Shown here one piece after another: positions 13,645-35,044 of a stretch of DNA of 64,000 nucleotides. Under the pieces are notes generated by a model. The model made no database searches and was not told the DNA's origin. It saw only the letters and a program-made list of their open reading frames with translations. Made by a program: the position numbers and the translations under genes. Location: positions 62,001-126,000 of the IMG/VR virus record IMGVR_UViG_3300047548_000908; one strand, given 5' to 3'. Source of the DNA: an uncultured virus (IMG/VR IMGVR_UViG_3300047548_000908) (lineage: Duplodnaviria > Heunggongvirae > Uroviricota > Caudoviricetes). Positions within the stretch are counted from its first letter, which is position 1. Every line of letters begins with the position of its first letter.

Positions 13645-15711
13645 TTAGTCGATTGCTGCAAACCCATAACCTGCGGGACTTTCTATACCCATAGCCCTCA
13701 ACTTATTCCTAAATTGCATTCTTGCACCATCCATGTCGCCTGTTCTGGCATAAAATGCGGCTAGAATAGTTTCTGGATTATCAATTGAGTAGACTTTGTA
13801 TAAAGTGCTACCGGATGCTGAATCTGGTGCATATCTTTGGGCCGCTGGGTGTGATCTGCCTTCTTCCTCATATGGGCGAACAGGGGTAGCTTGTAGAGCA
13901 CTTTGAACCCCAGCCCATTCCGGATAGTTCCCCGGCATCACTGCTCTAGCAATAGCTGCTTCTTGACTGTCTGCAACAACTTCAATTCCGGCTGCACTGT
14001 TAGCAGGATTGGTCACACGCCACCAGTACTTTTTGCCATCAGTACCTGGTTTTTGCTTGGAAAAATACATAGACCTTACTTTAGCTAATTTTTCTCGGAA
14101 CTCTGATTTAGATATCTCACCGGTTACCGTCTTATAAAACAGCTCAACTAAGAGTTGGTATTGTACTTGTTTCACAGGAGGATCTACCGAAACTAATTGT
14201 CTTCTTCCTTTACCTGGAACGTCAAACATCTTTTTGGGACCCTTAGCATTTATCGGATCTTCTGGGTCATAATACTGAAATTCTGATGGTTTAAGTAGGT
14301 TATATAACTTTTTACCATATTCATTTTTATATTTGTCAGGGTCTGAGGCAATATCTAGTGCCACTACGAAACGAAGTAAAGTGTTCTTGAGTAACTTGAT
14401 ATCTGCATTAAGCCAATCACCACCTGGACTTCTAAACTCAACATACCCGTCTTTAACATTAATACTAGTATATTTGCTTGTTGCTCTGTTGTGAATAATA
14501 GCACTAGCTTTATATCCTAAATTAGTTCTCATTTGTTCAAAGGCAGTCTTGGCTTTGTCAGGTCTATTAACAATAACCTTTTTAATTATTTTCATAGCCG
14601 ATTCACAATATCGATTAGCTTCTCTGCCAAACTCTTCTAATACATATTCATCACCTAAAAATAATGCTAGTTTAACATAGTCTAGGTCTTTCGTTCCCTT
14701 TCCCTGAACACTAATATTCATGTGCAGTCCAGTGTGATAGTCATCACCAGTGTAGCATCCTTTACTTTTTGCCCATGCAATAACTTTATCTAGATCATCA
14801 AACATTTCATTTATAGGCAAAGGTGGGCTAATGAATTCTAAACCAGAATCGCTATCACTATCTCCTTCAAGGCTAGTATCCTTTTCAACTCTATAGTTAT
14901 CTGTTTGACTAAATTCACCTGAGTGATAGTCACCATAAGTAACAGGTCTTCCTATAATTTTTTCAAACTCTACTGCGACAGAACCCATACTTTGTCCGCT
15001 ACCCCCACTTTCTTCCATTGATGTATAATAAGGCCAGGTTATATCGTACTGATCTACAACATCGGTCATGTAGCGTATTCCTTGATCTGAAAGGAAATTA
15101 CTCTCGTCTAGGTTATTCTCATCGTGCCAGTTTTCTATGAATTGTTTTCTGGCATTTCGATAAACCCAGCCCTTTTCGTTATCCCATTCGTTATCTAGCC
15201 ATTCTTCTTTTTCTTCTGCTAGCTTTGCCATTATTAGATTTTCAATCTCTTCTTCGTCAGCATCATCACCCAATTTGTCTCTGATTCGTTCTTCTATATC
15301 TTCTCTTGTAGTTTCTTCATCGAATTGATCATCTGCCCAGTTATCAAAGAACTCTCTTCCCTCGTCACTTCTCCAAGCATCATCTGCTTTTTTGTTCATC
15401 CAATCATCAAATTGATCATTGAATGTAGATGCAAGACGATTGATCTCATCACGAGAATTATACCCTTCACCGCCCGAAAAAAAATTTAAAATTGAATCAA
15501 AATCAAGTGCTCGCTGATCGTAATCATAGTCTGGCTCTGGCACAAAATCATCGTCATCATATTCTTTAACCGATACATCAGGAACAATCATCTCAAATTC
15601 CATACCAGCTTTAGCAGAGATTGAAGCTGCCATTTTTTTAAGAGCAGAAGGTGACATATTCACCTCATTCAATAGCATCTCTGTTATTAATCCAAATTCT
15701 GTAAATCTCAT
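13645..15711 (-). CDS. putative amidoligase (COOH-NH2 ligase), paralog 1
   Basis: GMEFE, EKDTSL, GLEFISPP, TGLHMNIS, KYTSIN, VEFRSPGG. Confidence 0.8.
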   Translation of the reverse strand: MRFTEFGLITEMLLNEVNMSPSALKKMAASISAKAGMEFEMIVPDVSVKEYDDDDFVPEPDYDYDQRALDFDSILNFFSGGEGYNSRDEINRLASTFNDQFDDWMNKKADDAWRSDEGREFFDNWADDQFDEETTREDIEERIRDKLGDDADEEEIENLIMAKLAEEKEEWLDNEWDNEKGWVYRNARKQFIENWHDENNLDESNFLSDQGIRYMTDVVDQYDITWPYYTSMEESGGSGQSMGSVAVEFEKIIGRPVTYGDYHSGEFSQTDNYRVEKDTSLEGDSDSDSGLEFISPPLPINEMFDDLDKVIAWAKSKGCYTGDDYHTGLHMNISVQGKGTKDLDYVKLALFLGDEYVLEEFGREANRYCESAMKIIKKVIVNRPDKAKTAFEQMRTNLGYKASAIIHNRATSKYTSINVKDGYVEFRSPGGDWLNADIKLLKNTLLRFVVALDIASDPDKYKNEYGKKLYNLLKPSEFQYYDPEDPINAKGPKKMFDVPGKGRRQLVSVDPPVKQVQYQLLVELFYKTVTGEISKSEFREKLAKVRSMYFSKQKPGTDGKKYWWRVTNPANSAAGIEVVADSQEAAIARAVMPGNYPEWAGVQSALQATPVRPYEEEGRSHPAAQRYAPDSASGSTLYKVYSIDNPETILAAFYARTGDMDGARMQFRNKLRAMGIESPAGYGFAAID

Positions 15712-15729
15712 TTACTTTTCCCTAATTTA

Positions 15730-17691
15730 TTAATTTCGAACAGGTTCATACCCAAAATCATCAAGATTAGAATCCCATCCCCAAGTAGCCAATCTACTCT
15801 TAAACTGTCTTTGAGCGTCGCTTATGCTTGTCGTCCTAGCCACAAAAGTTCCTTGTGTTTCTTCAGGATCATCTACTGCAAATATTCTAAACCTAGTGTA
15901 TCCCTCGGGCACTGGAGCATCCTCATCTGGTTGTCTTGATGCAGGCGTGATCTCTGCCGGTTTAATAAACGCTTTAGCACCTTGCATCATTTCATGTGAT
16001 GGTAACACTCCCCATTCTTCTGCTGCTTTATTTAATGCGTCTTCCTTTGATTTAGCCAGTAATTCCATGCTAAAACGTCCGGTAGCATCGGTTACGATCC
16101 AAATAAGGTTAAATTTTGAATTCGGATCATACCCCCTCATTTTTTCAATGCTCCAAGACTGTCGAACTGCTTTAATTGCACTTCTAAATTGATCTTCTGT
16201 AATTTCATTGGCGGTAAACTTTGAAAACAAACTGACTAAGTACAGGTAGTCTTTTATATGTTTGTCGTCAACAACAGGTACTTGTTTTAAACCTTTACCT
16301 GGTGTACTTACGAACTTAGTAGGTTGCTTTAGATTAGCAGGATCTTCAGGGTCGTAATATTGAAATTCAGTAGGCTTAAGTAGATTGTATAATTTTTTAC
16401 CATATTCATTTTTATACTTGTCGGGATCTGAGGCAATATCTAATGCTACCACAAATCTACTGAGAGTATCTTTTAGTTTACCTATGTCTGCTTCTAACCA
16501 ATCACCACCTGGACTTCTAAACTCGACATATCCGCTTTTTACGTTAATGCTAGTATACTTACTAGTAGAGCGTTCATGTATTATAGCACTAGCTCTATAT
16601 CCTAAATTGACTTTCATTTTTGCTAGTGCCTCTTTGGCTCTATTTGGCTGAGTCATGATGATATTTTTGATTTTTTTCATAGCAGCTTCGCAGTAAATAC
16701 TTGCTTCCCTGCCAAACTCCTTCAGTATATATTCGTCACCCAAGAACAACGCTAGTTTAACGTAGTCTAGGTCTTGTGTTCCCTTCCCCTGAACACTAAT
16801 ATTCATGTGCAGTCCGGTGTTGTTTTTGTGACTAGTGTAGCATCCTTTATCTTTTGCCCAGGATATTACTTTTTCTAGATCATCAAACATTTCACTAATC
16901 GGCAATGGAGGACTAATGAACTCCAACCCAGTATCATTCGTGCTACTGGGTTCTAAACTACCATCTTTTTCAACTCTATAGTTATCTGTTTGAGAACGTT
17001 CTCCTGAATGATAGTCGCCATGAGTAACAGGTCTTCCTATAACCTGTTCAAACTCTGCTGCTACCGTCCCTATTCCATCGTTATTGGATATCCAATAAGG
17101 CCAAGTTATATTATAACTTCTCTCCACATCCGACATGTATCTATAATTTTCTCTCAACCAAATCCTTTGAAAATCTTCCCAATATTGGGATTGATAATCT
17201 TCAAGAAACTCATCATAAACGTTTTGATAGTTATGGTCTTGTTTTTTGATGGCTCGTTCAATCATGGAATCTATAGCCTCATCAACTGAATCAAATCCAG
17301 CGTCATTAGCCATTTCTTCAGTCATTTCCCCTTCAAAACGTTCTCTTAAAAGATCCTCTTTCTCTTCATTCCATTTTTCGTCCAGTTGCTCCATAAACCA
17401 ATCAGAATAATCAGTTACTAGGCTTTCGATGAGTAACTGGACATCTCTTCTTGAGTTATAATTTCCATCATCAAAAAAGTCTTCTATTTGAGAAAAGCTG
17501 GTAGCTCGTTCATCAGGATCGTAATCTTGTTCTAAATCGTCACCAGTGTCTTCAACATCAGGAACTATCATCTCAAATTCCATGCCTGCCATAGCATCAA
17601 TTGACTTGACCGCTTGTGCTAGAATGGTCGGCTTCATGCTTGCTTCGCCCAACGTCATCTCTGTCAATAATCCAAAATCTACAAATCTCAT
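15730..17691 (-). CDS. putative amidoligase, paralog 2
   Basis: GMEFE, EKDGSL, GLEFISPP, TGLHMNIS, KYTSIN, VEFRSPGG; closely similar to paralog 1. Confidence 0.8.
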   Translation of the reverse strand: MRFVDFGLLTEMTLGEASMKPTILAQAVKSIDAMAGMEFEMIVPDVEDTGDDLEQDYDPDERATSFSQIEDFFDDGNYNSRRDVQLLIESLVTDYSDWFMEQLDEKWNEEKEDLLRERFEGEMTEEMANDAGFDSVDEAIDSMIERAIKKQDHNYQNVYDEFLEDYQSQYWEDFQRIWLRENYRYMSDVERSYNITWPYWISNNDGIGTVAAEFEQVIGRPVTHGDYHSGERSQTDNYRVEKDGSLEPSSTNDTGLEFISPPLPISEMFDDLEKVISWAKDKGCYTSHKNNTGLHMNISVQGKGTQDLDYVKLALFLGDEYILKEFGREASIYCEAAMKKIKNIIMTQPNRAKEALAKMKVNLGYRASAIIHERSTSKYTSINVKSGYVEFRSPGGDWLEADIGKLKDTLSRFVVALDIASDPDKYKNEYGKKLYNLLKPTEFQYYDPEDPANLKQPTKFVSTPGKGLKQVPVVDDKHIKDYLYLVSLFSKFTANEITEDQFRSAIKAVRQSWSIEKMRGYDPNSKFNLIWIVTDATGRFSMELLAKSKEDALNKAAEEWGVLPSHEMMQGAKAFIKPAEITPASRQPDEDAPVPEGYTRFRIFAVDDPEETQGTFVARTTSISDAQRQFKSRLATWGWDSNLDDFGYEPVRN

Positions 17692-19295
17692 TTACTTGTC
17701 TCCGATGCGAACCATGGGTCAATGATTACTAGTGTACCATCTTTTCTTTGCATTACGTTCTCTGTATGTAAATCCCATCCTAGTTTATTTATACGTCCGG
17801 TGTGATATAACAATCTCATCATAGAGTACAATACTGCATACTCTTGAACTTCTTTTCTAGACAACATGCTTAGATCATGCAAAATTTCTCCATACATTAA
17901 TCCTGTCCAATGTTCCCATGTTTCCTCTTTTCTCACAGTCAGTAGTGCCTGTCTCCAAGTCATTCCATTAGAAGCACAGTCACTAAGAATCCAAACCATT
18001 GCCTCTTTAAAAGTATCCTCAGGAATTGGATGAAGTTTTTCCATTGCTATTTGAATGAACTGCCTACCATCTAACATAAAGGTAGTGTGATGTCTGCCTC
18101 CTATCGACACGAATTTTGGTAGGCAATCAAAATTATCAAACTTTTGACAAAACTCATAGAATTTATAAAAGGTTCTTGCCGCAAAAGTAATGTCGTCGCT
18201 ACTATCCGGCATTATAATCTTTATGACGGTAGATTCATCTTTAGTCCAAACGCTTGCATCAGCGCCTCGCCCTAACATAGTATATCCTGCATCCTGCAAT
18301 GTATCAACTATCTTTTGCTCTGGTGTATCGGATGCAACTTCAAGTATTTCTTCTTCGTCGTCAAGGTCACTTAAATCAACATAGTTAATGGGGACTCGTT
18401 TGAATACTGCTGCCAATGCACGATGATTTCCATCAACTATCCTGTTATTTGCTATTAAAATAATACTACTAGATAACCCAGGATTGTTCTCATAGTCTCT
18501 AACGATATCTATTTGCTCTGGCTTCATGATATCAAGAATTTCATCTTCGTGTTCTACACGATACTGATTTGTTATCAGTATCTTAAGCTTAAACGGGGAG
18601 ATTTGATTAACAGTAAGAGGTTTATCTAAATCACTTGGTCTAACATAATCCCAAAAGGCTTCATATTCATCAGGTAAATCACCGTGATATAAGTTATTGA
18701 GCGTAGTTTGATTAACTGATTCAGTTACCAATCCACGCTTGTCTCTCCAATCACTTGGATCTCTATCGTAGTTTATATTACTGAACGTAAGTACTGATCC
18801 TCCGTCCGATCTTTGATATGGTTTATTCTTAACCCAACCTGGATTCACTTCGTGCAGTGCTGCTAATATTCTATCCATGTATCTTATGTAAATGCTTGCT
18901 CGTCTTCCAAATGCAATCATTTTAACACTGCTTGTATCGTACTCTGAGACAAACGCAGGGAGTTCTTTTATAACTAGATTCATCCAAGTTCGAACTAATG
19001 GAGTTGCATCTTTGGCATACTCTGCATCGTCATACTTAGTGTATGAATCATCTACAGTAGCTAGCAATTCTACCTTACTGCCATATCTTTTGAATATCAC
19101 TTGTGAAGGAGGTAATCCAGGCTTTCTTATAACCTGCCAAGTTTTGCTACTTGGTTGTTGATCAACCAGTTTAGTATCAAGTTCAGCTAGCAACTTCTGT
19201 CGTGATCGCTGCGATTTTGAAAAGTGCCTTCCTTTTGTCATATTTTTTTCTGTTATCTTAATTTCTGCTAGGTTATCAGCGAGTTCATCTAACAT
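17688..19295 (-). CDS. multidomain protein: unknown + ParB/Srx-like + protein-kinase-like
   Basis: IVDGNHRALAA (ParB); LGRGADASVW, VIKI, MEKL, DLHTENVM, IIDP (kinase). Confidence 0.72.
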   Translation of the reverse strand: MLDELADNLAEIKITEKNMTKGRHFSKSQRSRQKLLAELDTKLVDQQPSSKTWQVIRKPGLPPSQVIFKRYGSKVELLATVDDSYTKYDDAEYAKDATPLVRTWMNLVIKELPAFVSEYDTSSVKMIAFGRRASIYIRYMDRILAALHEVNPGWVKNKPYQRSDGGSVLTFSNINYDRDPSDWRDKRGLVTESVNQTTLNNLYHGDLPDEYEAFWDYVRPSDLDKPLTVNQISPFKLKILITNQYRVEHEDEILDIMKPEQIDIVRDYENNPGLSSSIILIANNRIVDGNHRALAAVFKRVPINYVDLSDLDDEEEILEVASDTPEQKIVDTLQDAGYTMLGRGADASVWTKDESTVIKIIMPDSSDDITFAARTFYKFYEFCQKFDNFDCLPKFVSIGGRHHTTFMLDGRQFIQIAMEKLHPIPEDTFKEAMVWILSDCASNGMTWRQALLTVRKEETWEHWTGLMYGEILHDLSMLSRKEVQEYAVLYSMMRLLYHTGRINKLGWDLHTENVMQRKDGTLVIIDPWFASETSK

Positions 19296-21462
19296 CGGAA
19301 CTCACCACTGCATAATGCTTAGGGGCAATCATTTTTATTTTATACTCATCATCTCTAGTATCATTAGGCATAGATAAGAAGTACGTTTTTTTGCTACGAG
19401 GCCTTCCCCATGGCTTCATACTTACCCCATCGTCTTCTACATGAACTACATGCCCCATTTGCCCTGGTACTTTCCAATCGACACGGTTGCCTGAGGCAAG
19501 CAACTGTTTAACTGTTTGAATTATCTTACTTCTATCATCGTCGCCCCATGGCTCATTGTTTTTACTCTTAGGAGGCTTTGGCGGCTTTATGAATCCATCG
19601 TTGGCGAATTCTTTAATAGCCGATGAGGAAGATTGTTGTGTGTTTGCTCTTTTTTGTTGCTGTATTAAATTAACATACCAAGTATGCTCTGGTGTTCCTG
19701 GAGACAATGTAATCGTAGTGAATATCTGAACTCCTAGTTTGTTTTTTCTGTTAGATCCGTAAACCACTGGATAGAGTACATCCTTTTTTAACCCTCCCCA
19801 AATAGGCAGCTTTGCGTTAAACAATACAGCATTGACGGACTTACCAAACTTTTCTAAACCTGCTTTAGTAACGGTAGATGATACTTGAGAAATTTTATCG
19901 AACTCTTTACTTGTGATAGAGGTTGCAACATTATTTGGAGCTTTAACAATATTAGGATTATACTTATCAAAAAACAAGCTACGCCTCAGTAAATTATCAG
20001 AGGTACTCTTATAAGAAGTTCCATAGTACAACACCGCGTCAACTTTTATAGGTGATTGTTTTGCAGAAAGCATATCGGTTATTCCAGTAGTATTATTTGC
20101 CCCGCTAACTAAATTAGAAAGTTTTGTCAGATACTCCTTTCTATACATATTAGGGTCGTTTGCAATCACCATAGCCCGAACAAATCTGCCAACTGAATCT
20201 ATAACATCATTTAGGTTAGATAAGTAATCTCCACCAGCGTGCCTGAAACTTATCCATTTTCCATTATTGCTTATACTTGCTTTATGATTGTTAGATACGT
20301 TTAATGCAATATCTTGAAGTATTGCTATTCCGTTTTCATCAAAAACAGTTAGAGGGGTTTTGTTGGTTGTTATGCCTTGCTTTATTGAGGACATCACACC
20401 CTGAGCAAAATCATTCGCTGCTCTTCCCCATTTTTGCAAAACATATTGATCACCGGAGAACACTGCTAATTTAAGAACATCTAGTCCATTTGGTATACTG
20501 ATGTTAATGTGAATACCAGTAGAGCTATTTGTGTAAGCACCAGCTTGCTTTGCTATCTGATAGAACTTCTTCAAAGCATTTACAGCTTCAATTGCAGGTA
20601 AGGGTGGAGTAACTACTTCTGCTGCACCATCATTTGGATTGTTTGGTCTGACGGAAACGTCAGGTTCAATATACCATTGATCTGCTGTTTTTTCTTCCCC
20701 GTGATATGCTTTTAGTACCTTAACATTTTGAAAAGTTTTTGCAACTAACGGTTCTAGAATTGACGCAGCACCCATATAGTCATAACTAACTGGGTATATG
20801 TCATAACTATCTCCTCTTGGCATATAACCAAAAACTTCATGTTTAAGTTTGTAAAAGTTTAGTTTGGGATTCTGTACTAATTTTGCGATATCATCAGTGC
20901 CAAACACATCTTGGAAAAACGATGTATTAGCATAGGTTTCTATTCTGTTTACTTTTTCAGCTAGGTCTTTAAAATCTCCGTTTTCCTTATTTTCAAAAAA
21001 TGACTTAGTTACTCGCATGAAGTCAAACGTACTATTCTTATCGTATCTTCCACGCCTATCTCGCTCTATAGTTTGCTTCCACCTAGTCTTCACTGCGTTT
21101 TGTATTTCACTAGGAAGGCTATCAAGTAAAGGAATAAACATCTGTTGAGCAACTTGTTCATTGTATGCTTTGACCAAACTAGTAGAAGTCTTAACTGGCT
21201 TTCCATTAAAATTAAAAGGGGCTAGTAAGTCAAAAAGAAGATGAGGTCCATAGTACTTCCCCAGTAACTGCCAATCGGCTGGTACTTCTTTTATCCAATC
21301 AAGATCGTTTCCGCTTGTTTGTTTTATTTGTTTCCTAGGTACACAGACTTCGAATTCAAATCCCATCAAAACACCCTTTGCATTTGCCTGTTCAAGTGAT
21401 TGCCCAAATGCTTTAGGATTCATTGCAACTTCTGATACTGCACTAAACTCATTAAATCTCAT
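19285..21462 (-). CDS. putative amidoligase, divergent paralog 3, with C-terminal extra domains
   Basis: GFEFE, IEPDVS, AEVVTPP, STGIHINIS, ISFRHAGG. Confidence 0.75.
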   Translation of the reverse strand: MRFNEFSAVSEVAMNPKAFGQSLEQANAKGVLMGFEFEVCVPRKQIKQTSGNDLDWIKEVPADWQLLGKYYGPHLLFDLLAPFNFNGKPVKTSTSLVKAYNEQVAQQMFIPLLDSLPSEIQNAVKTRWKQTIERDRRGRYDKNSTFDFMRVTKSFFENKENGDFKDLAEKVNRIETYANTSFFQDVFGTDDIAKLVQNPKLNFYKLKHEVFGYMPRGDSYDIYPVSYDYMGAASILEPLVAKTFQNVKVLKAYHGEEKTADQWYIEPDVSVRPNNPNDGAAEVVTPPLPAIEAVNALKKFYQIAKQAGAYTNSSTGIHINISIPNGLDVLKLAVFSGDQYVLQKWGRAANDFAQGVMSSIKQGITTNKTPLTVFDENGIAILQDIALNVSNNHKASISNNGKWISFRHAGGDYLSNLNDVIDSVGRFVRAMVIANDPNMYRKEYLTKLSNLVSGANNTTGITDMLSAKQSPIKVDAVLYYGTSYKSTSDNLLRRSLFFDKYNPNIVKAPNNVATSITSKEFDKISQVSSTVTKAGLEKFGKSVNAVLFNAKLPIWGGLKKDVLYPVVYGSNRKNKLGVQIFTTITLSPGTPEHTWYVNLIQQQKRANTQQSSSSAIKEFANDGFIKPPKPPKSKNNEPWGDDDRSKIIQTVKQLLASGNRVDWKVPGQMGHVVHVEDDGVSMKPWGRPRSKKTYFLSMPNDTRDDEYKIKMIAPKHYAVVSSDVR

Positions 21463-22249
21463 TCTGCTGTGTTCCTTTACTGTTCTTCAATGCGGCTTTT
21501 AACGGCTCCCACATATCTTTATTTATCAACAAACAAGGACCACCAATCCAAAACTCAAATATCTCATTCATTATAGGAGCTATATTCTTCGTAGTGTAAT
21601 ATGTGAACCCAGTTTTTTTAGGGCTATATGCGACCTCGACAAGTTTAGCAATTTCTTCTCCGGATACACCAGTTACTCCAATAACGGAAAAAATTTCTTC
21701 AGGAGTCTTAGACTTAAGCGAAGCAGTAAACTCTTCATACGAAGACACAGGAAGATCCAGTCTGCTCCAATAGTAATTCCAAAATTCTATAGGCTTTCTT
21801 ACTCCAGCAATAGTTATTTTAGTATCCCACATATCTTGTCTATTAACAGATCCTATTTTTACACCATCGAATGGAATTACTATTAAAGGATCACCAGATG
21901 CATATCCGTTAGCAGTAGCATAATGAGTAGTGGCAATGAATGATCTTGATCGTTTCGGGAATCTTGACATCGATGGCAGACCATCTAGTATTATCGTGTA
22001 GTAATTCCTAGTGTTTTGACTAACTCGTACAGTCAACGCGGGATTTGCTGAAGCGAACCCGGTTTTTGCTACTTTCATAACTTCATTCGAAGAAAATCCT
22101 CGCCAAATCGGGGAATTGTTCTGTAGCATCCAAGCAGCGTCTTTGCAATCATTTCGTGCAACGTTAACTGCCTCTTCTAATGTAAGCTGCACAAATTGAA
22201 TTTCTTGACCAGGTGCCGCAGCCTCAGTAATTATTTCGTTTATCCGCAT
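21452..22249 (-). CDS. ADP-ribosyltransferase-like protein, paralog 1
   Basis: IWRG...RSRSFIATT...EFWIGG (R-S/T-E pattern). Confidence 0.5.
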   Translation of the reverse strand: MRINEIITEAAAPGQEIQFVQLTLEEAVNVARNDCKDAAWMLQNNSPIWRGFSSNEVMKVAKTGFASANPALTVRVSQNTRNYYTIILDGLPSMSRFPKRSRSFIATTHYATANGYASGDPLIVIPFDGVKIGSVNRQDMWDTKITIAGVRKPIEFWNYYWSRLDLPVSSYEEFTASLKSKTPEEIFSVIGVTGVSGEEIAKLVEVAYSPKKTGFTYYTTKNIAPIMNEIFEFWIGGPCLLINKDMWEPLKAALKNSKGTQQNEI

Positions 22250-22251
22250 GA

Positions 22252-23076: not shown

Positions 23077-23104
23077 AATTAGTATTTATCGTATGCGAAC
23101 ATTA

Positions 23105-23204
23105 AGTAGACATCCAGCTTACTTTATACTGGGCCAAGTGCGCCTGGCAGTGAAATTTCGCGGACGCCTTATACCGTAGCGACAAACGGCCCTAAGGTGG
23201 GTTC
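23105..23204 (-). ncRNA. candidate structured non-coding RNA
   Basis: GC-rich intergenic island with three hairpins whose G-U pairs favour the minus strand. Confidence 0.5.
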
Positions 23205-24074: not shown

Positions 24075-24091
24075 TTTTCTTCCACAATAGA

Positions 24092-24927: not shown

Positions 24928-24937
24928 GATTAGATAT

Positions 24938-25519: not shown

Positions 25520-25525
25520 ATCAAC

Positions 25526-26278: not shown

Positions 26279-26697
26279 TTTTGGTAACTCATCGCATTTA
26301 CTAGTTGAGACATAGGTATACCTGCATTGTCATATCCTTGTCTGATTGTTTGAATATATTTCTTAGATGGGTGTGTATGTTTAAGGACGGTCCTAGTGTT
26401 ACTAGTCATCACATAAACAAATGCAGACTCAGGTTTACCTTTAGTTGAAACATCAACTAGTATCCTATCGTATAGATCAGGGTACCCTTCTATTTGATCT
26501 AACTCATTTAGTTTGCCTTCGTCAATATCCCAAAGACATCCTATCACACGATCACCACTTGACGATACAACATTGGCAAATCGCAGCATTTCAAAACGGT
26601 AATCCTTTAAGGTAGCAACACCCACAAATGACTCTTCATCGAAGTAATCCTTATGGGTGAGCATCCCGTATGCAAAGTATTTTATTGACTTGTTCAA
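26275..26697 (-). CDS. gamma-glutamylcyclotransferase (AIG2-like)
   Basis: YFAYG, LDQIEGYP.LY.R, AFVYVM, PSKKY. Confidence 0.85.
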   Translation of the reverse strand: MNKSIKYFAYGMLTHKDYFDEESFVGVATLKDYRFEMLRFANVVSSSGDRVIGCLWDIDEGKLNELDQIEGYPDLYDRILVDVSTKGKPESAFVYVMTSNTRTVLKHTHPSKKYIQTIRQGYDNAGIPMSQLVNAMSYQK

Positions 26698-26709
26698 AAT
26701 CTTATGTCT

Positions 26710-27168
26710 TTATATGGTTTCTTCTGGACCAACAACCGGCATCTTCATAACGCTTCGCAAGAACCATTTATGTTTACCATGTGCATCTATTCTACCAGCA
26801 ATAAAATCTGCGATTCCTTGTTCGTTTTCTCTATCCGCCACTTCAAAGATAGTGTTCAAAACCTTTATCATTTTTAGGTTATCTTCATACAGTTCTGAAA
26901 CCATTTCGTATGAGGTTAGTATTTCTGTTTGGTCTTTGATAACACTAAGTTTTGCAAAGGGCATAAATCCTGCTGGAACATAGTCATTTAGAATACGAAT
27001 ATATTCTGCGGTCTTGTCAATGGAGCCCTCAACATCTTCAATAATTTCATCAAACATTTTATGAAGCTGAGGGAAATCCGGTCCTTCTACGTTCCAGTGA
27101 AAGTTTTGAGCTTTGAAAAGAAAGCCGTATGTTGATCCTAATAATATTTTTAAGCTATCACTTAGCAT
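26710..27168 (-). CDS. dps: Dps/ferritin-like protein
   Basis: NFHWNVEGPDFPQLH, DKTAEYIR, KHKWFL. Confidence 0.9.
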   Translation of the reverse strand: MLSDSLKILLGSTYGFLFKAQNFHWNVEGPDFPQLHKMFDEIIEDVEGSIDKTAEYIRILNDYVPAGFMPFAKLSVIKDQTEILTSYEMVSELYEDNLKMIKVLNTIFEVADRENEQGIADFIAGRIDAHGKHKWFLRSVMKMPVVGPEETI

Positions 27169-27196
27169 TATGAATTCCTTTAATTTAAATTGTTTT

Positions 27197-30100
27197 TCAA
27201 TGGAACATTAGATAACTGTCAATCACATCTTTGCGATTAGCAGCCCTGTCTCCTGCACCTGGTTGCACTATTACATTCCACTTTGGAACATTACTAGGTG
27301 GAATAGAAAGCATTTCATCATAAGATATAATCGTATTTACATCCACATCGTACTTATCTGCTAGACGCTGCTTAAATAAATCTAATGCTTCTTGGTTCTT
27401 GAATTGAGTCCTGCCTTGTTCATCTTTGATAAGCTTTGTTCCTTCCCTAGCGATCAAGTCAAAGAACATACTTTTAGGAACAGTGATTCCCTGTTTCACT
27501 ACATTACCTTGCTTCTTATGAAACTCAATCTTCTTAACTTCAGATGACTTTGATCCACTGCTAAAATTAATAATGAAGTTATCTGGTTTGTCGTCAGTGG
27601 CTACGTCTGCGATTTTAGTGTAAGCATAGAATTCAACCGCTGGATTCTTTTTTGCTACTTCGTATGCCATATTCAAGTATTCTTTACTGAAGAAGTCACC
27701 TGCATCGTGCCAACGAACTACCAACTTTATTCCTTTCTTATCCATCTTCTTTTTGATATCATGAATTTCTTGATTTACCATATTCATGTATCCTTCAGGA
27801 TCATTTACTAAAAAGTTTAAAGCTTGTGCTGCACTCATACTAGAATTAGGGAACATAATGTATCCTCCTTTTCTAGCGTAACAAAACAATTGACACTCGC
27901 CTGCTTTTGGACAAGTAGTTATTTCTACAAACTCACCGGTCTCTTCATCAATTACAAGCCCTTTCAATGCAGGGAGAGTTAGATCATATATGATCTCTCC
28001 TTCCTTCGCAGATTTCTTCATCTTGGCGTTTGTCCCTAGGATAGAAGATGGTCTCTTAGTAATCTTATTGGCCAAGTCTTCCAAATCCCACACATCTTCG
28101 CCGTCGTCGCTTTTTGTTATTTTTACATTACTTGCATGTATAATAGGGCCAGTCACTTTTTCTTTCTTTGACTTCGTTCCCTTCATAGTGCGATCAACGT
28201 AACCATAGATTTCTTCGTGCCCTAGTCTACGATGAGGTGCGTTAAGGCCGATTGCTTCATCGACAACCTTAGTGATTGGCTTTACCTGAAATCCGCCTAG
28301 TGTTTTTTCATTTAGCTTAGACTGTACCTCTCTATCTTTGGGTCGATTGCCAAGTTCACGATCTTTTGCTTCTTTATAATCAATGAAGTCTCTTCCTAGT
28401 TTTTTAGCTAAGATTTGCTCTTCGTCTAACGCAGCTTCAGATACTGACTTTGATGAACTTTTTTTCTTTTTTACGCAATTGTTTACTCTTACTCCACCTT
28501 TAATTTTAGTGCCAGATTTTCTGTACCCTTTCCAACATTTTGGATCTAGTCTTTGTTTAATCTTTTTTGCTTCTGCGACCTCACTCTCTTTTAGAGTGAG
28601 TCCCTCTGACATATTCGTCAAACTTTTCCTAACTGCTCTAGCAACGTCTTGAGCTAGCGCAGTCGGGTCACCTTCACCATAATTTAATACACTAGTGATT
28701 GCAGCTTGAATAACTCTATCACCTGCTTTTCTAGCTAAGTTGGGATAGGATTGTTCAAATGCTGTATAGATTTCGTCAGCACGGGTTTCGTCATCTTCAT
28801 TTACAAACTTTTTGCTTGTTCTAATTCCACCAAAGATACTACCTTTTCCTTTTGTTCTAGAATGAGTAACGCCAATTGGAAATGCCATTGGTGCAACGCT
28901 ACTTGCAGATGTCATTTCGGTTAACCATCCCAAGTCTCTATTACTATCCCATGCTCCGATTCTTATTCCATTTTCATTTAGAGCTTCATACTTCCCTGAT
29001 TTTACATGAGAAATCTTTCCCTCTAGTACTTTTACTGCCGACACCCAAACTTTTTGATCAGTAAATTTTTTCTTTGATTCTAGGAACGTACTGCTTCTCC
29101 CAAACTTTGGTGCTTGACTATCTGCGCCATATGGATTACTTGCAGGAGTGACTACGCTTTCTGTTTTTCTGCTAGCTTTCATTTCACTTAACCCCATGTT
29201 TTTCTTCGCAATATCCATTAGCTGTTTTATCCATTCTGAGTCAAGTTTCTTTGCACCAAAGTCTCCGCTGTTATACGCTTTTTGCCATGCTGCAAATTGT
29301 TGCTCAGGTGAAGCATTTGGGTCTTTTAGTATGTTTCTCAAATATGTCCCACTGACCCCTGTTCCTCCCTTTTCAGACTCTCTTGGAGTAACATAAGGCA
29401 TTGCTTTAACATGCTCGTATCCAGCAAACTTATTGACTGCTCTCATCAGAGACTTGCTCCAGTTAGCTGCCATACTCTCACGATCAGTACCAACTGTTAT
29501 GATAACATTATCAAATCTAGGAGGCTGACCGGGTCTAGGATTTATAAGTTCGTGTTTAATTTTTTGTAATAGGTTGCCACCCTCTTGAGTTACAGTTGAA
29601 ATATTGTTTGCATATTGAGGGTACAACTTTTGCCATGTTTGTACTTTGACGCTAGGTGGAATAGGATCATCTTTTCCTTCTGCTGGTCCAATGAACATGA
29701 AGGGTTCTCCACCGACTTCGTTTGCTTTGTCAATTGCATACTTAAACAGTTGTTGATGTCCAACATGACCTATTGCGCTACCTACTGCAACTACTGCTGT
29801 CTTGTTCGATCTTGGCCCAGAGGAAACTGGAGTAGCTTTCTTTGCAGCCATAATATCCTTCATTTCTTGGCTAGTTACCTTTAACACCATTCCACTAGGC
29901 ATGTTGATAACTAAACCTTCTATGACTTTGCCGAGTTGATCTTTTCCTTTGATAGCAGGGCTATTTATAATTGCATCTGATACTTGTTTCTTTGCAGACG
30001 ATAAGAATTTTCTAACCTGTTCCTTTTCTGGAGTCAATCCCTTTGTCTTTAACGTCGCAGTAATCTCGTTTTCATTTTCTAATACTTTATCAACTATAGG

Positions 30101-31906
30101 ACCTAACTGAACTCCCTTTTGTTTCAAAGCATTGTTCACTACTTTTATATTGGGACTGCTCAGTGAAAGTAACTTTTTCTTTATCTCCATTCCATCAGGT
30201 CTATCTTCACCTGTGCTGAATGATTTGATAAAGATAGGAACGAGGGTCATTACTTTTCCTAACTTCTTTGGATCGTATGTGATGTTAACAAACTTGTATC
30301 CGCCATCAGATTTCTGAGCCATTGCGTTGAACATCATCTCTGCTTGAACAATAGTATCGGATGGAAGACTTTTCACAAGATCGCTAGTTAGGATAATCTT
30401 CAATGCCTTGTCATAGTTCTTTGTGAATTCTAAACGCTCTGCATCTTGACCTACGCTGATTCCGTATTTTTCAAAATCACCATAGTTCTCAATATACTTA
30501 GGCTCTGTTACCCTCGAAGTCATGAAGAAAGGTTTTCCAGACTCATCTTTTCCAAAGCGAATTCCTGCACCATCTGCTTTTAAGTTAATTTGAACATTGT
30601 CTAATGTTCCACCATTCTCTGCGATTTCTTTGCAGAATGCAATAAAATCAAGGTCTTGTATTTCTGTACTTGAACCTGGATTGTATATATGCTGAACACC
30701 CTTTCTCTTAAAGTTCGGCTTAATTGTGGCCTCTCTTAAAGACTCAGTTGGAGTCATCTTATAGTTATCTTTGTATTGCTTTATCATAGGAAGCAAGTCG
30801 CTTGGTTTTTCTAGACCTAGCACTTCCATTGCCTTGTTGATAGCTACGGTCTTTTCTGTTATGTCACGATCGGGATCATTCTTGTAAATACCTTGTGCAC
30901 CAGGTCCTACTGTTTTTTCTAAAAATGTTCTAAAAACAGTCTCCTTTTCTTCCTGTGATAAAACAGAACTCATAATTTCAAGTAACCCAACAAAAGACCA
31001 AAGCTTATTAGAAACTTTCTTTAGACTTGCAGGAGACAATCTTTTTCCAAACAGACTTAAAAATATTTTGCCTACATTTTGTTCGTAGCCTGCCGCAGGT
31101 GCAGCAGACATAACTGGAAGACCATCTTTTACTAATGGCGTATTTCCATCCATAACTGGAACATATTTTATTCTTAATCCGCCCCCTTCTTTGGAGGAAA
31201 CTGCAAACGAAAACATATTGTCTACAGTGGGTACATCCTCTTCTTTTCTTTTCTTCCCTTTGCCTACCATTTTTCTCAAAAGAAATTCTCTTTTGGTTAA
31301 TGAGGCTAATGACTGAATTAAGAATTTATGGAAAACTCCTTTGATAGAGTTTTGCATATCGTCCCAAGAAGAAGAGTGAGAAAATCTTGACCATTCAGTA
31401 GGAAGACCTTGATCGAAAGATACAAACTCAAAATCGATTTGAATAGTTATCGGTAAATCTTCAAATCTCCAAAGACTTGAGTACTGTTCATTACCACGCT
31501 GATATCCAATGAATATAGCTGGTCCAACTTGTTTACCTTTAACGTCATTGAGGAATGCAGCGAGTGTGGTTTCTTTCTCTTTATCAACCATTGTGTCGAT
31601 ATCACCGACCTTTGGTTTTACTTTAGTAAAAGTCTCATCAGAGATATTCACATCATTAAAGAAGTGCAATGATGATCCACTTAGGAACGTTCTATTCTTT
31701 AGTAAGGTGGGTTCCCATAGATTTGAGCCTGCATGTTGTCTGTATGCTTTGTCGATGCTCAATAGCAAGGTATTCAAAAGGGGAACCATAAAGCTTCTTT
31801 TGTGAACTAGCAGATTGATTTGTTCAGCTTCATGTCCATCTAGTGATAGATTTCCTCCCTCCATTATAGGGGTGCGTATTCTAGTAGAAAGTTCAAATAT
31901 TTTCAT
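27197..31906 (-). CDS. 1569-aa multidomain protein: Pol-beta NTase-like, ATP-dependent ligase-like, HxGH nucleotidyltransferase, short modules, gp88-like Fe-S domain
   Basis: SGSS...GDID...QIDF; NLKADG, QAEM, IEGLV, LKV; GHVGH...VSGTYLR; CWKGY...NCV; TCPKAGECQLFCYA, RWHDAGDF, YAYTK. Confidence 0.7.
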   Translation of the reverse strand: MKIFELSTRIRTPIMEGGNLSLDGHEAEQINLLVHKRSFMVPLLNTLLLSIDKAYRQHAGSNLWEPTLLKNRTFLSGSSLHFFNDVNISDETFTKVKPKVGDIDTMVDKEKETTLAAFLNDVKGKQVGPAIFIGYQRGNEQYSSLWRFEDLPITIQIDFEFVSFDQGLPTEWSRFSHSSSWDDMQNSIKGVFHKFLIQSLASLTKREFLLRKMVGKGKKRKEEDVPTVDNMFSFAVSSKEGGGLRIKYVPVMDGNTPLVKDGLPVMSAAPAAGYEQNVGKIFLSLFGKRLSPASLKKVSNKLWSFVGLLEIMSSVLSQEEKETVFRTFLEKTVGPGAQGIYKNDPDRDITEKTVAINKAMEVLGLEKPSDLLPMIKQYKDNYKMTPTESLREATIKPNFKRKGVQHIYNPGSSTEIQDLDFIAFCKEIAENGGTLDNVQINLKADGAGIRFGKDESGKPFFMTSRVTEPKYIENYGDFEKYGISVGQDAERLEFTKNYDKALKIILTSDLVKSLPSDTIVQAEMMFNAMAQKSDGGYKFVNITYDPKKLGKVMTLVPIFIKSFSTGEDRPDGMEIKKKLLSLSSPNIKVVNNALKQKGVQLGPIVDKVLENENEITATLKTKGLTPEKEQVRKFLSSAKKQVSDAIINSPAIKGKDQLGKVIEGLVINMPSGMVLKVTSQEMKDIMAAKKATPVSSGPRSNKTAVVAVGSAIGHVGHQQLFKYAIDKANEVGGEPFMFIGPAEGKDDPIPPSVKVQTWQKLYPQYANNISTVTQEGGNLLQKIKHELINPRPGQPPRFDNVIITVGTDRESMAANWSKSLMRAVNKFAGYEHVKAMPYVTPRESEKGGTGVSGTYLRNILKDPNASPEQQFAAWQKAYNSGDFGAKKLDSEWIKQLMDIAKKNMGLSEMKASRKTESVVTPASNPYGADSQAPKFGRSSTFLESKKKFTDQKVWVSAVKVLEGKISHVKSGKYEALNENGIRIGAWDSNRDLGWLTEMTSASSVAPMAFPIGVTHSRTKGKGSIFGGIRTSKKFVNEDDETRADEIYTAFEQSYPNLARKAGDRVIQAAITSVLNYGEGDPTALAQDVARAVRKSLTNMSEGLTLKESEVAEAKKIKQRLDPKCWKGYRKSGTKIKGGVRVNNCVKKKKSSSKSVSEAALDEEQILAKKLGRDFIDYKEAKDRELGNRPKDREVQSKLNEKTLGGFQVKPITKVVDEAIGLNAPHRRLGHEEIYGYVDRTMKGTKSKKEKVTGPIIHASNVKITKSDDGEDVWDLEDLANKITKRPSSILGTNAKMKKSAKEGEIIYDLTLPALKGLVIDEETGEFVEITTCPKAGECQLFCYARKGGYIMFPNSSMSAAQALNFLVNDPEGYMNMVNQEIHDIKKKMDKKGIKLVVRWHDAGDFFSKEYLNMAYEVAKKNPAVEFYAYTKIADVATDDKPDNFIINFSSGSKSSEVKKIEFHKKQGNVVKQGITVPKSMFFDLIAREGTKLIKDEQGRTQFKNQEALDLFKQRLADKYDVDVNTIISYDEMLSIPPSNVPKWNVIVQPGAGDRAANRKDVIDSYLMFH

Positions 31907-31966
31907 AGTTGTCTCAAGTGATGTTTATGTATTTAGCGAATTTACATTGAAGTCCAGTCTTCTCAA

Positions 31967-34900
31967 TTACCTGCGTAACAAAGTTTTCATATCATACCAA
32001 TTAGTATGGAATGCATAATATTCTCCGTTAATTAGAATTTCATGACCTGACTGCAAGGCTCGGTGCATTTTATCATTTCTAAGCCCATGTCGATCTATTA
32101 GTTCTTTTACGTCAATCGAACTCCAATCAATTTTCACGTTTGAGTTAACCCATCTCCAAAGATCCAACAGTATTGCTTTGGAATACTTACTTATAAACAT
32201 GCCATCAGTTTTGCTATTCAAATGAGAACCAGTGATGTCTACGATACTGTTAATTCTAGGTTCTAGCCAATCTTTGTTACTAGAATCCATACGATTGCCA
32301 CTTTCTAAAAATTGATGTACTTCTTCAATGAACATAATAGCTTTCTTTTTTTCTTCATCGGAAATAGAAAGTGCGTTTGACTGAATGTCTCTCTTCAATA
32401 ACCTAAGACATCTAAGAATCATACTCTTTCTTGCAGGTAAAGGTACACCCTTTTCCCCGGTAAGGAATGAATCCAGCCCGGGGTATTGAGAAACAAATTC
32501 TTCATAAAAGTCTTTATATTTCTCGCTCCATGTAAAGGTGAATCCGTTCTTAGGAAAAATGTAATATACATTGTCCTTTCCGTATATTTCTGCAAACGAA
32601 AAGCTTGAAGTGCAGTACAAAGAATTACCACGTAACGCTGTAAAACCAGCCGATTTTAGTACAGTATCAACGACAGTTTGTATTTCGACAGGTGTATCCA
32701 TTGGCTTTTTTCTAGGCTTCGTGTAGTCCCAAAACGCAACAGGTATGTTTTTCTCTAGTGCTCCTTTTATTCCTCGATATAAAAAGGTGTCACTAGATCC
32801 AAGCATTTTCAAAAATTCACTGCATTCAGTTCGTATAAGTTCCGCTGGATCAACATCTTCGGGAATGGGAACTAAAGTCAATTTAGGAGCCTCATCCTCT
32901 TCTCTTAGCAGAGGGGGAACACCGTTCCTCTTAATCTTTGAACCTAACTTAGCTGCATTCTTCTGCATTGTGTCTGGTTTTATATCCACAGTCAGAGCAG
33001 TTTTAAATCTTGGATCGTTGGCTTCTTTTTTGCTTGGAATGTATCCTGACGCTGATTCATTAACACTACGAGGTATCAACAACTCGGGCATTCTATAGTC
33101 ATCTACATTAGCTTGGTCGTACGGCTTAAGAGACTTCTTATACTTCAATGCTGCTGCTTCTTTTTCTTCGTCAGTTTTTGCTCTGTAGAACTTATTAGCA
33201 AATACCATATCTCCCACTAATGTGCCAGGAACAATTTCTACCTTAGCTGGTTTATAGTATCGTAGTTTTTCTGGATCTTTACCTGTGAGGCTATAAAATG
33301 TTGATATCCATTTGTCAGGGTGTAGCGCAAAAGTATGAGTTTTTCTTTCTGGAACTAACTCTGCAAGTGGATCGTTACCTTTGAAAAACTTAGGTAATTT
33401 TTGTAAGTGTGTAGCTGTTTTTTCTTCATTAACTTGGCCTTCGTGTTCACCTCGGATTGCTCTGTCTACATAGTCACTTGATACTTCTTGTTCAAGGTCT
33501 ATTTGAACCCCTAATTTTTTTGCCAATTTAATAATTGCATTTCGTGCCGATTGGTCTTTGTAGATCGCAGAAAGACTTCTTTGCCCTTCATCATATTCAT
33601 CCCAGTCTTGCATTAATGGGATAACATTGGGTATCTTTTTTAGTTCATTGAAGAGGTGTTGTTGAAGTTCGGCATCCGTAGCATCGGGGAAGTTTGGATT
33701 AACACATACAAATTCTATTTCTTTGTAGCTTGTTTTACTTTCACTCAGTTGCTGATAGTCATGCGTCTCATATTCCACTAAGATGCTTTCTAATAAATCA
33801 GAAACTACTTTGATATTTGATGGAGGTATCCTAGAAGTGATTGCGATTTCATAGTCTGCTCCATCGATTGTTTTAACTGGTAGACCAAATGTACTGATTG
33901 CTAGCAATGCGAGTTCTTCATTTTCTTCTAGTTCGTCCCCTAGCCAATTCATTAATGCATCGTGTACTGAATCCTTATCCTTAAAGCAGTAGATTGCAGG
34001 AGTGTCTTCTCCTATTTTTTTCGATCTATCACCGATCTTAGGAATTAATCCCCTAGCCAAAATAGGATTCAGATTTTTCTTCAGAGTGACATGATAAACA
34101 GTTTTTGGAATACCAGTTGATTCTTCAAGATTGGCTTTGTTCAATTTAGTGTAATAGTTAGGATCTTCCTTAAGGTGATCCAATGCAATTTGCATAGCAA
34201 TCTTTTTGTCATAAGTATGCTCTAATTCTACTTGAATGCCTTTTTTTAATTGTGCTTTTATTTGCTGAACAGTTACTTTATGTCGTTTGGCAAGTTGATC
34301 AACAGACAAAGTTTTTTTGTTTAACGGTGATGATTCTGGTAAACTTAGTCGTATATCGTGTAGATCATTTTTTGTTTGATGTAGTTTATCAATGACACCT
34401 TGTGTTCTAAGCACTTTGAATGCAAGATTTTCAGGACCAAACTCACCGTGTTTGTCTAATCCAGCTTGGCGATATCTCTTTATAACTCTGAGTAGTTCAT
34501 CTATCTTCTTTTCATCTTTGGCTTTGATTGCAGCATCTGCGATATCTGCGAGCTTTTCATACTTTAACCTTGCTGCGGTTTCATCTACACCTGATCTTCT
34601 TTTCTTTGGTATGTGCAACCATTTATCATGCAAAACACTATACTCACCTAAACTAATTACAGGCTCAGCCGCATCCTGTACATATAATTCAACTTCGTAC
34701 CCTCGAATGAATATGTCATGATATTCGTTGTACAGATTCTTTTTCTCTTTGAATAGCTCTTTATAAATTTCATCATTGGAAAGTTTTGTCATATCCACTA
34801 GGATATGCAAATCGATGTCACTATGCTTAGTGTAGGAGTAAGCTGCATTTGATCCAGATATAGTTATATCTTCGATATCTAAATCAGAAATACCCAAATA

Positions 34901-35044
34901 TTCTATGAAGTCTTCAGCAATGAGTAACAGTCTATCTCTTACTTCTGCCCGTAGCTCTTCGTTTTTAAACAATGCAGGATTTAGCTCATCATGAAATTTG
35001 ATCGCATCATCAAGTCGAAATTTATCTAGTTCAGTTAGTTTCAT
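31967..35044 (-). CDS. 1025-aa multidomain protein: Pol-beta NTase, small helical domain, H-Y-E ART-like, unknown modules, R-S-E ART-like
   Basis: ISGSNA...SDIDLH; GIQVELEHT...IALDHL; YHVT...GLIP...AIYCF; LYRG...RGNSLYCTS...GHEILING. Confidence 0.68.
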   Translation of the reverse strand: MKLTELDKFRLDDAIKFHDELNPALFKNEELRAEVRDRLLLIAEDFIEYLGISDLDIEDITISGSNAAYSYTKHSDIDLHILVDMTKLSNDEIYKELFKEKKNLYNEYHDIFIRGYEVELYVQDAAEPVISLGEYSVLHDKWLHIPKKRRSGVDETAARLKYEKLADIADAAIKAKDEKKIDELLRVIKRYRQAGLDKHGEFGPENLAFKVLRTQGVIDKLHQTKNDLHDIRLSLPESSPLNKKTLSVDQLAKRHKVTVQQIKAQLKKGIQVELEHTYDKKIAMQIALDHLKEDPNYYTKLNKANLEESTGIPKTVYHVTLKKNLNPILARGLIPKIGDRSKKIGEDTPAIYCFKDKDSVHDALMNWLGDELEENEELALLAISTFGLPVKTIDGADYEIAITSRIPPSNIKVVSDLLESILVEYETHDYQQLSESKTSYKEIEFVCVNPNFPDATDAELQQHLFNELKKIPNVIPLMQDWDEYDEGQRSLSAIYKDQSARNAIIKLAKKLGVQIDLEQEVSSDYVDRAIRGEHEGQVNEEKTATHLQKLPKFFKGNDPLAELVPERKTHTFALHPDKWISTFYSLTGKDPEKLRYYKPAKVEIVPGTLVGDMVFANKFYRAKTDEEKEAAALKYKKSLKPYDQANVDDYRMPELLIPRSVNESASGYIPSKKEANDPRFKTALTVDIKPDTMQKNAAKLGSKIKRNGVPPLLREEDEAPKLTLVPIPEDVDPAELIRTECSEFLKMLGSSDTFLYRGIKGALEKNIPVAFWDYTKPRKKPMDTPVEIQTVVDTVLKSAGFTALRGNSLYCTSSFSFAEIYGKDNVYYIFPKNGFTFTWSEKYKDFYEEFVSQYPGLDSFLTGEKGVPLPARKSMILRCLRLLKRDIQSNALSISDEEKKKAIMFIEEVHQFLESGNRMDSSNKDWLEPRINSIVDITGSHLNSKTDGMFISKYSKAILLDLWRWVNSNVKIDWSSIDVKELIDRHGLRNDKMHRALQSGHEILINGEYYAFHTNWYDMKTLLRR

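Follow-up and report, generated by a model that had tools for sequence, protein, structure and literature searches.

Eleven of the 15 open reading frames (ORFs) in a 21 kb block, positions 13645–35044, of a 64 kb stretch of DNA from an uncultured virus begin with a leader peptide of a common type, and in two cultured relatives this type of leader predicts association with the virion. The stretch, which we refer to as the window, corresponds to bases 62001–126000 of one 137,127 bp virus contig (IMG/VR record IMGVR_UViG_3300047548_000908), for which CheckV gives a completeness of about 35%; almost all genes are carried by the minus strand. The leader spans 9–11 residues with the consensus M-[RK]-hydrophobic-x-E-[FI]-[ILV]-x-E, and the next residue is mostly Ala, Glu or Gly; the leader is real, non-random and modular. 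The interpretation that we favour, with a probability of about 0.7, is that it acts as a T4-type propeptide for capsid targeting, which would load its bearers onto the prohead core, be trimmed after Glu by an S77 protease and allow delivery of the cargo with the DNA.

A first-pass annotation of the window had quoted eleven such N-termini, all of which are present at the minus-strand starts given for them (Table 1). It had also proposed a scan of the whole proteome for the motif, and the enrichment is clear. The pattern ^M[RK]..[ED][FILVM] opens 21 of the 194 ORFs of a greedy set covering the whole contig, where about one would be expected (binomial P of about 1.5e-20). The same pattern follows an internal Met in two of 856 instances and is found at 231 of 41,172 positions overall. 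Chance was considered as the source of the leader and is rejected given these counts. A hydrophobic-x-Glu triplet falls within residues 3–16 in 18 of the 21 leader ORFs, compared with 40 of 157 other ORFs of at least 60 residues. Four relaxed cases (an internal start MRAREFITE, two MVKAYEI... and MREFIDLLED) bring the set to 25 ORFs. Fourteen of these lie elsewhere on the contig, so that the 21 kb array first described does hold eleven tagged ORFs, but the payload extends beyond it. Replication and chaperone genes were said to be free of the leader, and this is true of the DNA polymerase, the clamp loader, the ClpA-like protein and DnaJ.

When ORFs were grouped by BLAST after removal of their first 20 residues, the 25 leader ORFs formed 13 unrelated families: one of 11 members, one of three and 11 singletons. 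The leader therefore crosses family lines, although the initial description of eleven unrelated catalytic folds was too generous, since the eleven window ORFs represent only five BLAST families (three amidoligase paralogues, five proteins with one ADP-ribosyltransferase-like, or ART-like, domain and three singletons). The 1025-residue protein is instructive in this respect. Its copy of the shared ART-like domain is C-terminal, at about residues 714–995, and the leader is nonetheless at residue 1; for this reason we regard the leader as a separate module.

Selection acts on the leader peptide rather than on the RNA, as the paralogues encoded at 21452 and 22252 keep MRINEII(T/N)EA despite five synonymous codon differences in ten codons. 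An AlphaFold2 model of the protein encoded at 22252–23076, calculated with an alignment of nine paralogues, has a mean predicted local distance difference test score (pLDDT) of 84.9 and a predicted template-modelling score of 0.82. Residues 1–14 have pLDDT values below 50, and the model thus depicts the leader region as a flexible N-terminal extension preceding a folded domain. Amongst 20 database homologues of the same protein the wording of the leader varies by lineage, an example being MITFKTFLE followed by AAV. Judged by eye, a hydrophobic-x-Glu triplet followed by Ala, Ser or Glu is retained in 17 of these 20, with one case ambiguous and two lacking it.

The evidence that carries the packaging interpretation comes from published virion proteomes, and the cross-check of the leader against them is the new element here. 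Agrobacterium phage Atu_ph07 possesses an array, gp053–gp066, homologous to the small ART-like paralogues of the window, the members of which start M-[RK]-W-x-[QD]-L-[TN]-E. Analysis of Atu_ph07 virions by electrospray ionization tandem mass spectrometry (ESI-MS/MS) identified 131 virion-associated proteins (Supplementary Table S5 of Attai et al., 2018; PMC6102473), to be set against the 714 features of the phage record. We compared every ATG frame of at least 50 codons in this genome with ^M[RK][WFLIYVMA].[EDQ][LIFVM] and obtained 28 hits. Five were dropped: one inside a gyrase-like gene, one inside gp343, one upstream of the annotated gp704 start and two unannotated, the last two being therefore missing from the database that the authors searched with their mass spectra. 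The 23 hits remaining at annotated starts are gp43, gp46, gp47, gp53–gp63, gp196, gp199, gp381, gp408, gp482, gp487, gp548, gp561 and gp672. All 23 are in Table S5 (hypergeometric P of 2e-18 against 131 of 714 overall), and when paralogues are counted once there are roughly ten independent families, all virion-positive. The set includes gp53–gp63, homologues of the window's ART-like array, and the amidoligase homologue gp196, which starts MRWQDI...LTE, adjoins the portal gene and is represented in virions by 14 unique peptides.

The same expression applied to Pseudomonas phage PA5oct gave ten hits, six of them at annotated starts. Four of the six (gp333, gp279, gp254 and gp104) carry a note of ESI-MS/MS detection in the record. 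With 93 virion-associated proteins among 461 coding regions (PMC7318152), this corresponds to P = 0.017.

The leader resembles that of the T4 internal proteins. In T4 the capsid-targeting sequence (CTS) is found on IPI, IPII, IPIII and Alt and is removed by gp21. According to a review (PMC9026906), it comprises ten residues, the first ten of IPIII suffice for incorporation into the head, targeting depends on residues 4 and 7 and processing on residues 8 and 10, and gp21 cuts after Glu. The review adds that CTS fusions load foreign proteins which are then delivered into cells, and suggests that the CTS may be a general route by which T4-like phages load varied proteins (PMC9026906). Translated from NC_000866, T4 IPII and IPIII start MKTYQEFIAE followed by Ala, and Alt starts MELITELFDE. 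The window leaders are likewise about ten residues long, placed at the extreme N-terminus and attached to unrelated proteins. They share the core E-[FI]-[ILV]-x-E, with E-F-I-x-E identical in several, have a hydrophobic-x-Glu triplet followed by Ala, and place hydrophobic residues at the positions equivalent to CTS residues 4 and 7. Leaders of uncultured relatives, such as MRANEFINE, MRALEFLNE and MRAREFISE, are of the same kind. There are also differences. The window leader is one residue shorter and starts M-R/K-hydrophobic, some 25 tagged proteins are encoded in one third of a genome where T4 has a handful, cargo enzymes can be as long as 1569 residues, paralogue arrays are expanded, and the experimental evidence for this clade consists of bulk virion proteomes.

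The phage belongs, like T4, to the T4 superfamily, and its relatives encode a protease of the gp21 type. Genes for Peptidase_S77, the family of T4 gp21, are present in Atu_ph07, in PA5oct and in two uncultured relatives, G001 (340 kb, rated 98% complete) and G002 (335 kb, rated 95% complete). In G001 and G002 the protease gene sits within a T4-like head module of portal, small core-like protein, acidic protein, protease, scaffold and capsid protein, and L-x-E and I-x-E triplets abound at the N-termini of the capsid and scaffold proteins. The gene for the small core-like protein, located between those of portal and protease, itself has the leader type in Atu_ph07, PA5oct and G002; the G002 protein has 75 residues and starts MKLLEMF. 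In G002 the leader type occurs on 14 of 364 ORFs, in 13 families, by which comparison the window's phage appears to have an enlarged payload.

According to the propeptide interpretation, the cargo genes would be expressed late, alongside those of the structural proteins. Within the growing prohead, the leader would dock each cargo protein on the scaffolding core, a prohead protease of the gp21 type (Peptidase_S77) would cut after the Glu of the hydrophobic-x-Glu triplet and so free the enzyme inside the head, and the cargo would exit with the DNA at infection. The proteomes of the relatives (23 of 23 in Atu_ph07, four of six in PA5oct) bear out the earlier suggestion of a T4-like packaging leader insofar as packaging of the leader-bearing proteins is now well supported by analogy. 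Cleavage after Glu, a location in the head, docking on the core, ejection or injection, action before phage gene expression and the host targets are parts of the scheme that we infer.

The TAAATA sequences noted in the first-pass annotation at 35066, 31930 and 23083 all exist, although the full ATAAATA is found at 35066 and 23083 only and not at 31930. The contig has 57 ATAAATA sites, 30 of which lie no more than 60 nucleotides upstream of a start on their own strand, against an expected 4.2% (P of 3e-26). Seven leader genes are preceded by the motif, as are those of the tail tube, the adaptor and other virion proteins. We take ATAAATA to be a late promoter, an assumption by analogy that draws on its likeness to the late promoter of T4. 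The strict T4 octamer, TATAAATA, is rare on the contig, with nine sites of which two are upstream of starts. Over 16500–36400, a scan for sigma-70-type promoters found no enrichment (46 sites compared with 57.9 +/- 6.9 in shuffled sequences) and a scan for terminators gave ten, compared with 11.7 +/- 3.0 in shuffled sequences.

Several points weigh against the propeptide interpretation. Four of the 15 genes in the block have no leader, and three of the 21 matches to the expression have no hydrophobic-x-Glu nearby; at least one of them, an HD phosphohydrolase that starts MKKGEM, could match by chance. PA5oct gp103 and gp408 are of the leader type and have no mass-spectrometry note in the record. 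The ATAAATA motif also occurs upstream of ClpX and endonuclease genes, so that to call it late is an assumption drawn from T4. The window's contig, which represents about one third of the genome, lacks genes for the protease, scaffold, portal and capsid proteins. The virion evidence pertains to relatives rather than to the window's phage and, since the Atu_ph07 leader M-[RK]-W-x-Q-L-T-E is like that of the window and not identical to it, is transferred by analogy. In addition, the Atu_ph07 virions were purified with polyethylene glycol and the list of their proteins includes RecA-like, single-stranded DNA-binding and ribonucleotide reductase proteins, so some contamination is likely. Finally, the published tables give coverage only, without N-terminal peptides, and the Atu_ph07 proteome does not separate head from tail or whiskers.

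This last point leaves room for the alternative that the leader sends proteins to an external or tail structure, such as whiskers or the baseplate, where they would be structural or adhesion components and would not be injected. By its description Atu_ph07 is indeed a hairy phage, and many of the proteins in its virion lack an explanation. We nevertheless consider such a destination improbable. The closest analogue of the leader is the T4 head CTS, the core-protein-like gene between portal and protease has the leader type in three relatives, and the cargo consists of enzymes (amidoligase, NUDIX, kinase, superoxide dismutase-like) and is not fibre-like.

A slightly weaker case can be made that the shared N-terminus carries no address at all and reflects descent of paralogues, or a 5' coding sequence favoured for translation of late mRNA. 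Eleven of the 25 leader ORFs do belong to one domain family and three more are amidoligase paralogues, and many bacterial and phage proteins have Lys or Arg as their second residue. Neither descent nor translation sits well with a leader spread over 13 BLAST-unrelated families, with synonymous codon variation beneath a constant peptide, with the lack of a leader on the late structural genes for tail tube, sheath and adaptor, or with the prediction of virion presence in all 23 Atu_ph07 cases. The least credible of the three is that the leader is a degron or adaptor tag for the phage's own Clp machinery, by which breakdown or unfolding of these enzymes during infection would be timed. Clp unfoldases read N-terminal motifs, and genes for ClpX-like, ClpS-like and ClpA-like proteins, DnaJ and Hsp20 are present on the contig, yet proteins of the leader type persist and accumulate in the virions of relatives and the motif ends in a hydrophobic-x-Glu of the prohead-protease type. 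PA5oct and G002 have far fewer leaders, which bears neither way on a link to Clp.

Turning to the nature of the putative cargo, the contig encodes three Amidoligase_2 proteins, 11 proteins that share a diversified ART-like domain, and a pair of giants of the polyvalent type (1569 and 1025 residues). The first-pass annotation had listed amidoligases, ARTs, a kinase, nucleotidyltransferases (NTases), a ligase and peptidases. The amidoligases are confirmed by Pfam, with Amidoligase_2 scores of 30.5, 38.7 and 27.4 bits for the ORFs at 13645, 15730 and 19285 against a cut-off of 22. ARTs are plausible, on weak matches. The NTase and kinase matches are also weak, and the kinase-like ORF is without a canonical leader; scans of Pfam, PHROG and NCBIfam found no ligase or peptidase cargo. 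Extending the Pfam search of the cargo to E <= 1 added only weak NTase-type matches, and NCBIfam gave no match for the cargo proteins of the window. The N-terminus of the kinase-like ORF at 17688–19295, MLDELADNLAEIKITE, is acidic and rich in hydrophobic-x-Glu, recalls that of T4 Alt and, judged on this resemblance, may be a second type of leader.

For the 11-member family an ART-like fold is plausible, not established. Nine aligned paralogues have invariant Arg, Ser and Glu columns. In a wide structure search with VIA-align, 27 of the first 36 rows bear titles of ART-fold proteins (ARTs, PARPs, DarT and ART toxins), including Arr (Z = 5.2), diphtheria toxin (4.4), cholix toxin (4.3), PARP16 (4.1) and DarT (3.4). 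The Z scores of the ART rows span 2.8–5.2; the first row, at Z = 5.7, is a protein without an assigned function, and no value reaches 6. For the ART-like protein Foldseek returned no match in the PDB at E <= 0.001, and there was none in Pfam or PDB sequence searches. PDB sequence searches with the paralogue profile and with the 1569- and 1025-residue proteins likewise gave no meaningful match. In the 1025-residue protein a weak NTase-like region and DUF5661 share the chain with the ART-like domain, and the 1569-residue protein has GP88 together with four PHROG regions to which no function is assigned.

Cargo bearing the leader outside the window includes a zeta-toxin-like kinase, a NUDIX hydrolase, a superoxide dismutase-like protein and a ParB-like protein. 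The first of these, a P-loop kinase with the leader MRIDEV... (contig positions 23749–24462, minus strand), scores 31.4 bits in Pfam against a cut-off of 22.3 and has ATAAATA 23 nucleotides upstream of its gene. The superoxide dismutase-like protein (contig 43863–44417) and a NUDIX or ADP-ribose pyrophosphatase-like protein (contig 44974–45567) have N-termini of the leader type. The Atu_ph07 virion list also has an ADP-ribose pyrophosphatase and a NUDIX hydrolase, with one peptide each.

Other systems offer partial parallels. In phages phiKZ, 201phi2-1 and SPN3US many head-internal or ejected proteins are, similarly, cut C-terminal to Glu, and the processing protease, gp175 or gp245, is a diverged homologue of gp21 (PMC9026906, PMC7411985, PMC10052503). 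These phages represent another jumbo lineage, with an inner body and a virion RNA polymerase. Unlike the window leader, their propeptides are longer and apparently do not form a single short portable N-terminal tag. Polyvalent proteins are large, have disparate enzymatic domains and are predicted to be packaged and delivered with DNA (Iyer et al., 2017; PMC5512222). Of the Pfam families that take their names from that study, GP88 and DUF5661 and, weakly, Kinase-PolyVal match here; most of the cargo here is, in contrast, single-domain, and the common element is the tag and not fusion. The word 'leader' is absent from the text of PMC5512222, and on that ground we take it to describe no N-terminal packaging tag.

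Gene neighbourhoods combining Amidoligase_2 with gamma-glutamyl cyclotransferases are said to have been described by Iyer and coworkers in 2009. The window amidoligases are encoded near a GGACT/AIG2-like gene in the same manner. Here, however, the amidoligases carry the leader and the GGACT protein does not; the ligase and the cyclotransferase would therefore act at different places or times.

Literature searches among openly accessible papers, including those on Atu_ph07, polyvalent proteins and jumbo-phage genomics and a 2026 jumbo-phage review, and with the PA5oct supplements excepted, revealed no account of a leader like this in the clade, and the words 'N-terminal', 'prohead' and 'paralog' are absent from the text of the Atu_ph07 paper (PMC6102473). 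A broader proposal, which we advance tentatively and rate a little below an even chance, is that Atu_ph07 and aquatic jumbo phages of the T4 superfamily use a portable tag of about nine residues, co-evolving with the prohead core and protease of each lineage, to load a large and fast-diversifying arsenal into the capsid, from which it would be delivered along with the DNA. With the same reserve, that arsenal might include ART-like paralogues in arrays, together with amidoligases, kinases and enzymes that modify nucleotides. Should this be correct, the tag alone would allow the effectors injected by any phage of this kind, cultured or not, to be listed from its genome.

If the tag is a packaging address, it provides a predictor, from sequence alone, of the proteins that a giant phage carries into the cell. 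Dozens of virion proteins annotated as 'hypothetical' in uncultured jumbo phages and in those of the Atu_ph07 type would gain a functional context, and the amidoligases and the large ART-like family would become candidates for host-modifying or anti-defence enzymes of the first minute of infection. A short portable tag would also extend the tools of T4-style protein packaging to much larger capsids. Raw virion mass-spectrometry data already exist for two relatives.

The features of the block are listed in Table 1. At its upstream end, a hairpin of AAAAGGCTACTT and AAGTAGCCTTTT arms followed by a T-run directly precedes the ATAAATA of the gene for the 1025-residue protein, an arrangement that looks like a terminator–promoter junction; the hairpin is not in the output of the terminator scan.

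Table 1. Features of the 21 kb block and its upstream edge. Positions are those of the window; minus-strand genes start at the second coordinate.
Position	Strand	Feature	Evidence or remarks
13645..15711	-	Amidoligase, 688 residues, leader MRFTEFGLITE	Amidoligase_2 (PF12224) at residues 252–441, E = 4.2e-07
15730..17691	-	Amidoligase paralogue, 653 residues, leader MRFVDFGLLTE	Atu_ph07 homologue gp196 in virion proteome
17688..19295	-	Kinase-like, 535 residues, no canonical leader, starts MLDELADNLAEIKITE	Kinase-PolyVal 0.0014 (under cut-off); phrog_15752 2.7e-08
19285..21462	-	Amidoligase paralogue, 725 residues, leader MRFNEFSAVSE	Pfam and BLAST family
21452..22249	-	ART-like paralogue, 265 residues, MRINEIITE then AAAPG	phrog_12810
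22252..23076	-	ART-like paralogue, 274 residues, MRINEIINE then AAAPG	AlphaFold2: residues 1–14 disordered, remainder confident
23083..23089	-	ATAAATA promoter-like motif	13 nucleotides upstream of 23076 start
23205..24074	-	ART-like paralogue, 289 residues, leader MRAREFVTE	BLAST family
24092..24550	-	Leader protein, 152 residues, MRASEFINLFE, fold unassigned	
24547..24927	-	Protein of 126 residues, weakest leader MKSDEFV, hydrophobic-x-Glu absent from residues 3–16	
24935–24941	-	ATAAATA motif	14 nucleotides upstream of 24927 start
24938..25519	-	Alpha/beta-hydrolase-like, 193 residues, no leader	All Pfam matches under cut-offs
25526..26278	-	ART-like paralogue, 250 residues, MKISEILSE then AQ	BLAST family
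26275..26697	-	Gamma-glutamyl cyclotransferase-like (GGACT/AIG2), 140 residues, no leader	Pfam, PHROG
26710..27168	-	Ferritin/Dps-like, 152 residues, no leader	Adjoins cargo genes in relatives too
27197..31906	-	Multidomain protein, 1569 residues, MKIFEL...PIME then GG	GP88 at 1292–1469 and four other PHROG regions
31930..31935	-	TAAATA 6-mer only (not ATAAATA), context CTAAATAC	Upstream of 31906 start
31967..35044	-	Multidomain protein, 1025 residues, leader MKLTEL	NTase-like N-terminal region, DUF5661 at 249–303, ART-like at about 714–995
35066..35072	-	ATAAATA promoter-like motif	28 nucleotides upstream of 35044 start
35073–35105		Hairpin AAAAGGCTACTT / AAGTAGCCTTTT then T-run	Directly upstream of ATAAATA of gene for 1025-residue protein

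The contig is a fragment of a T4-superfamily jumbo myovirus near Atu_ph07, an assignment made because of the likeness of the tail sheath together with the gene set. The nearest relatives of the tail sheath are those of Atu_ph07, the Pseudomonas PA5oct group, Sinorhizobium phage Phosso and Salicola phage SCTP-2, at 42–48% identity over the aligned pieces. PHROG and Pfam scans of the contig identified a family-B DNA polymerase, clamp loader, endolysin and PhoH, a T4-type tail sheath of 1184 residues, tail tube, head-closure and adaptor proteins, genes for 7-deazaguanine synthesis, and a chaperone and Clp set of ClpA-like, ClpX-like, ClpS-like, DnaJ and Hsp20 proteins. A megablast search with 12 kb of the block gave no match in the phage collection, which thus holds no near-identical phage record. 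In the protein collection, a protein identical to that of ORF 22252–23076 is recorded on another contig, of 338,587 bp, and a near-complete genome of the window's phage is probably present in public data.

A ClpA/ClpB-like ATPase of 758 residues and DnaJ are encoded at window positions 37308–39584 and 39581–40381, and the ClpX-like protein, the ClpS-like adaptor and Hsp20 at contig positions 34343–35551, 36374–36682 and 35873–36313. A homologue of ribosomal protein S21 (contig 35545–35766) adjoins the ClpX-like gene. Judging by its N-terminus, the ORF at contig 39715–40308 may encode a ClpP-like protein.

At window positions 2055–4246, genes for QueE-like and QueD-like proteins and a GTP cyclohydrolase stand in tandem, a row that suggests a pathway for 7-deazaguanine modification of DNA or tRNA. 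Two homing-endonuclease-like genes are found at 4248–4904 and 8803–9432, one of them on the plus strand and opposing the minus-strand gene flow. In relatives, comparable insertions flank the DNA polymerase gene.

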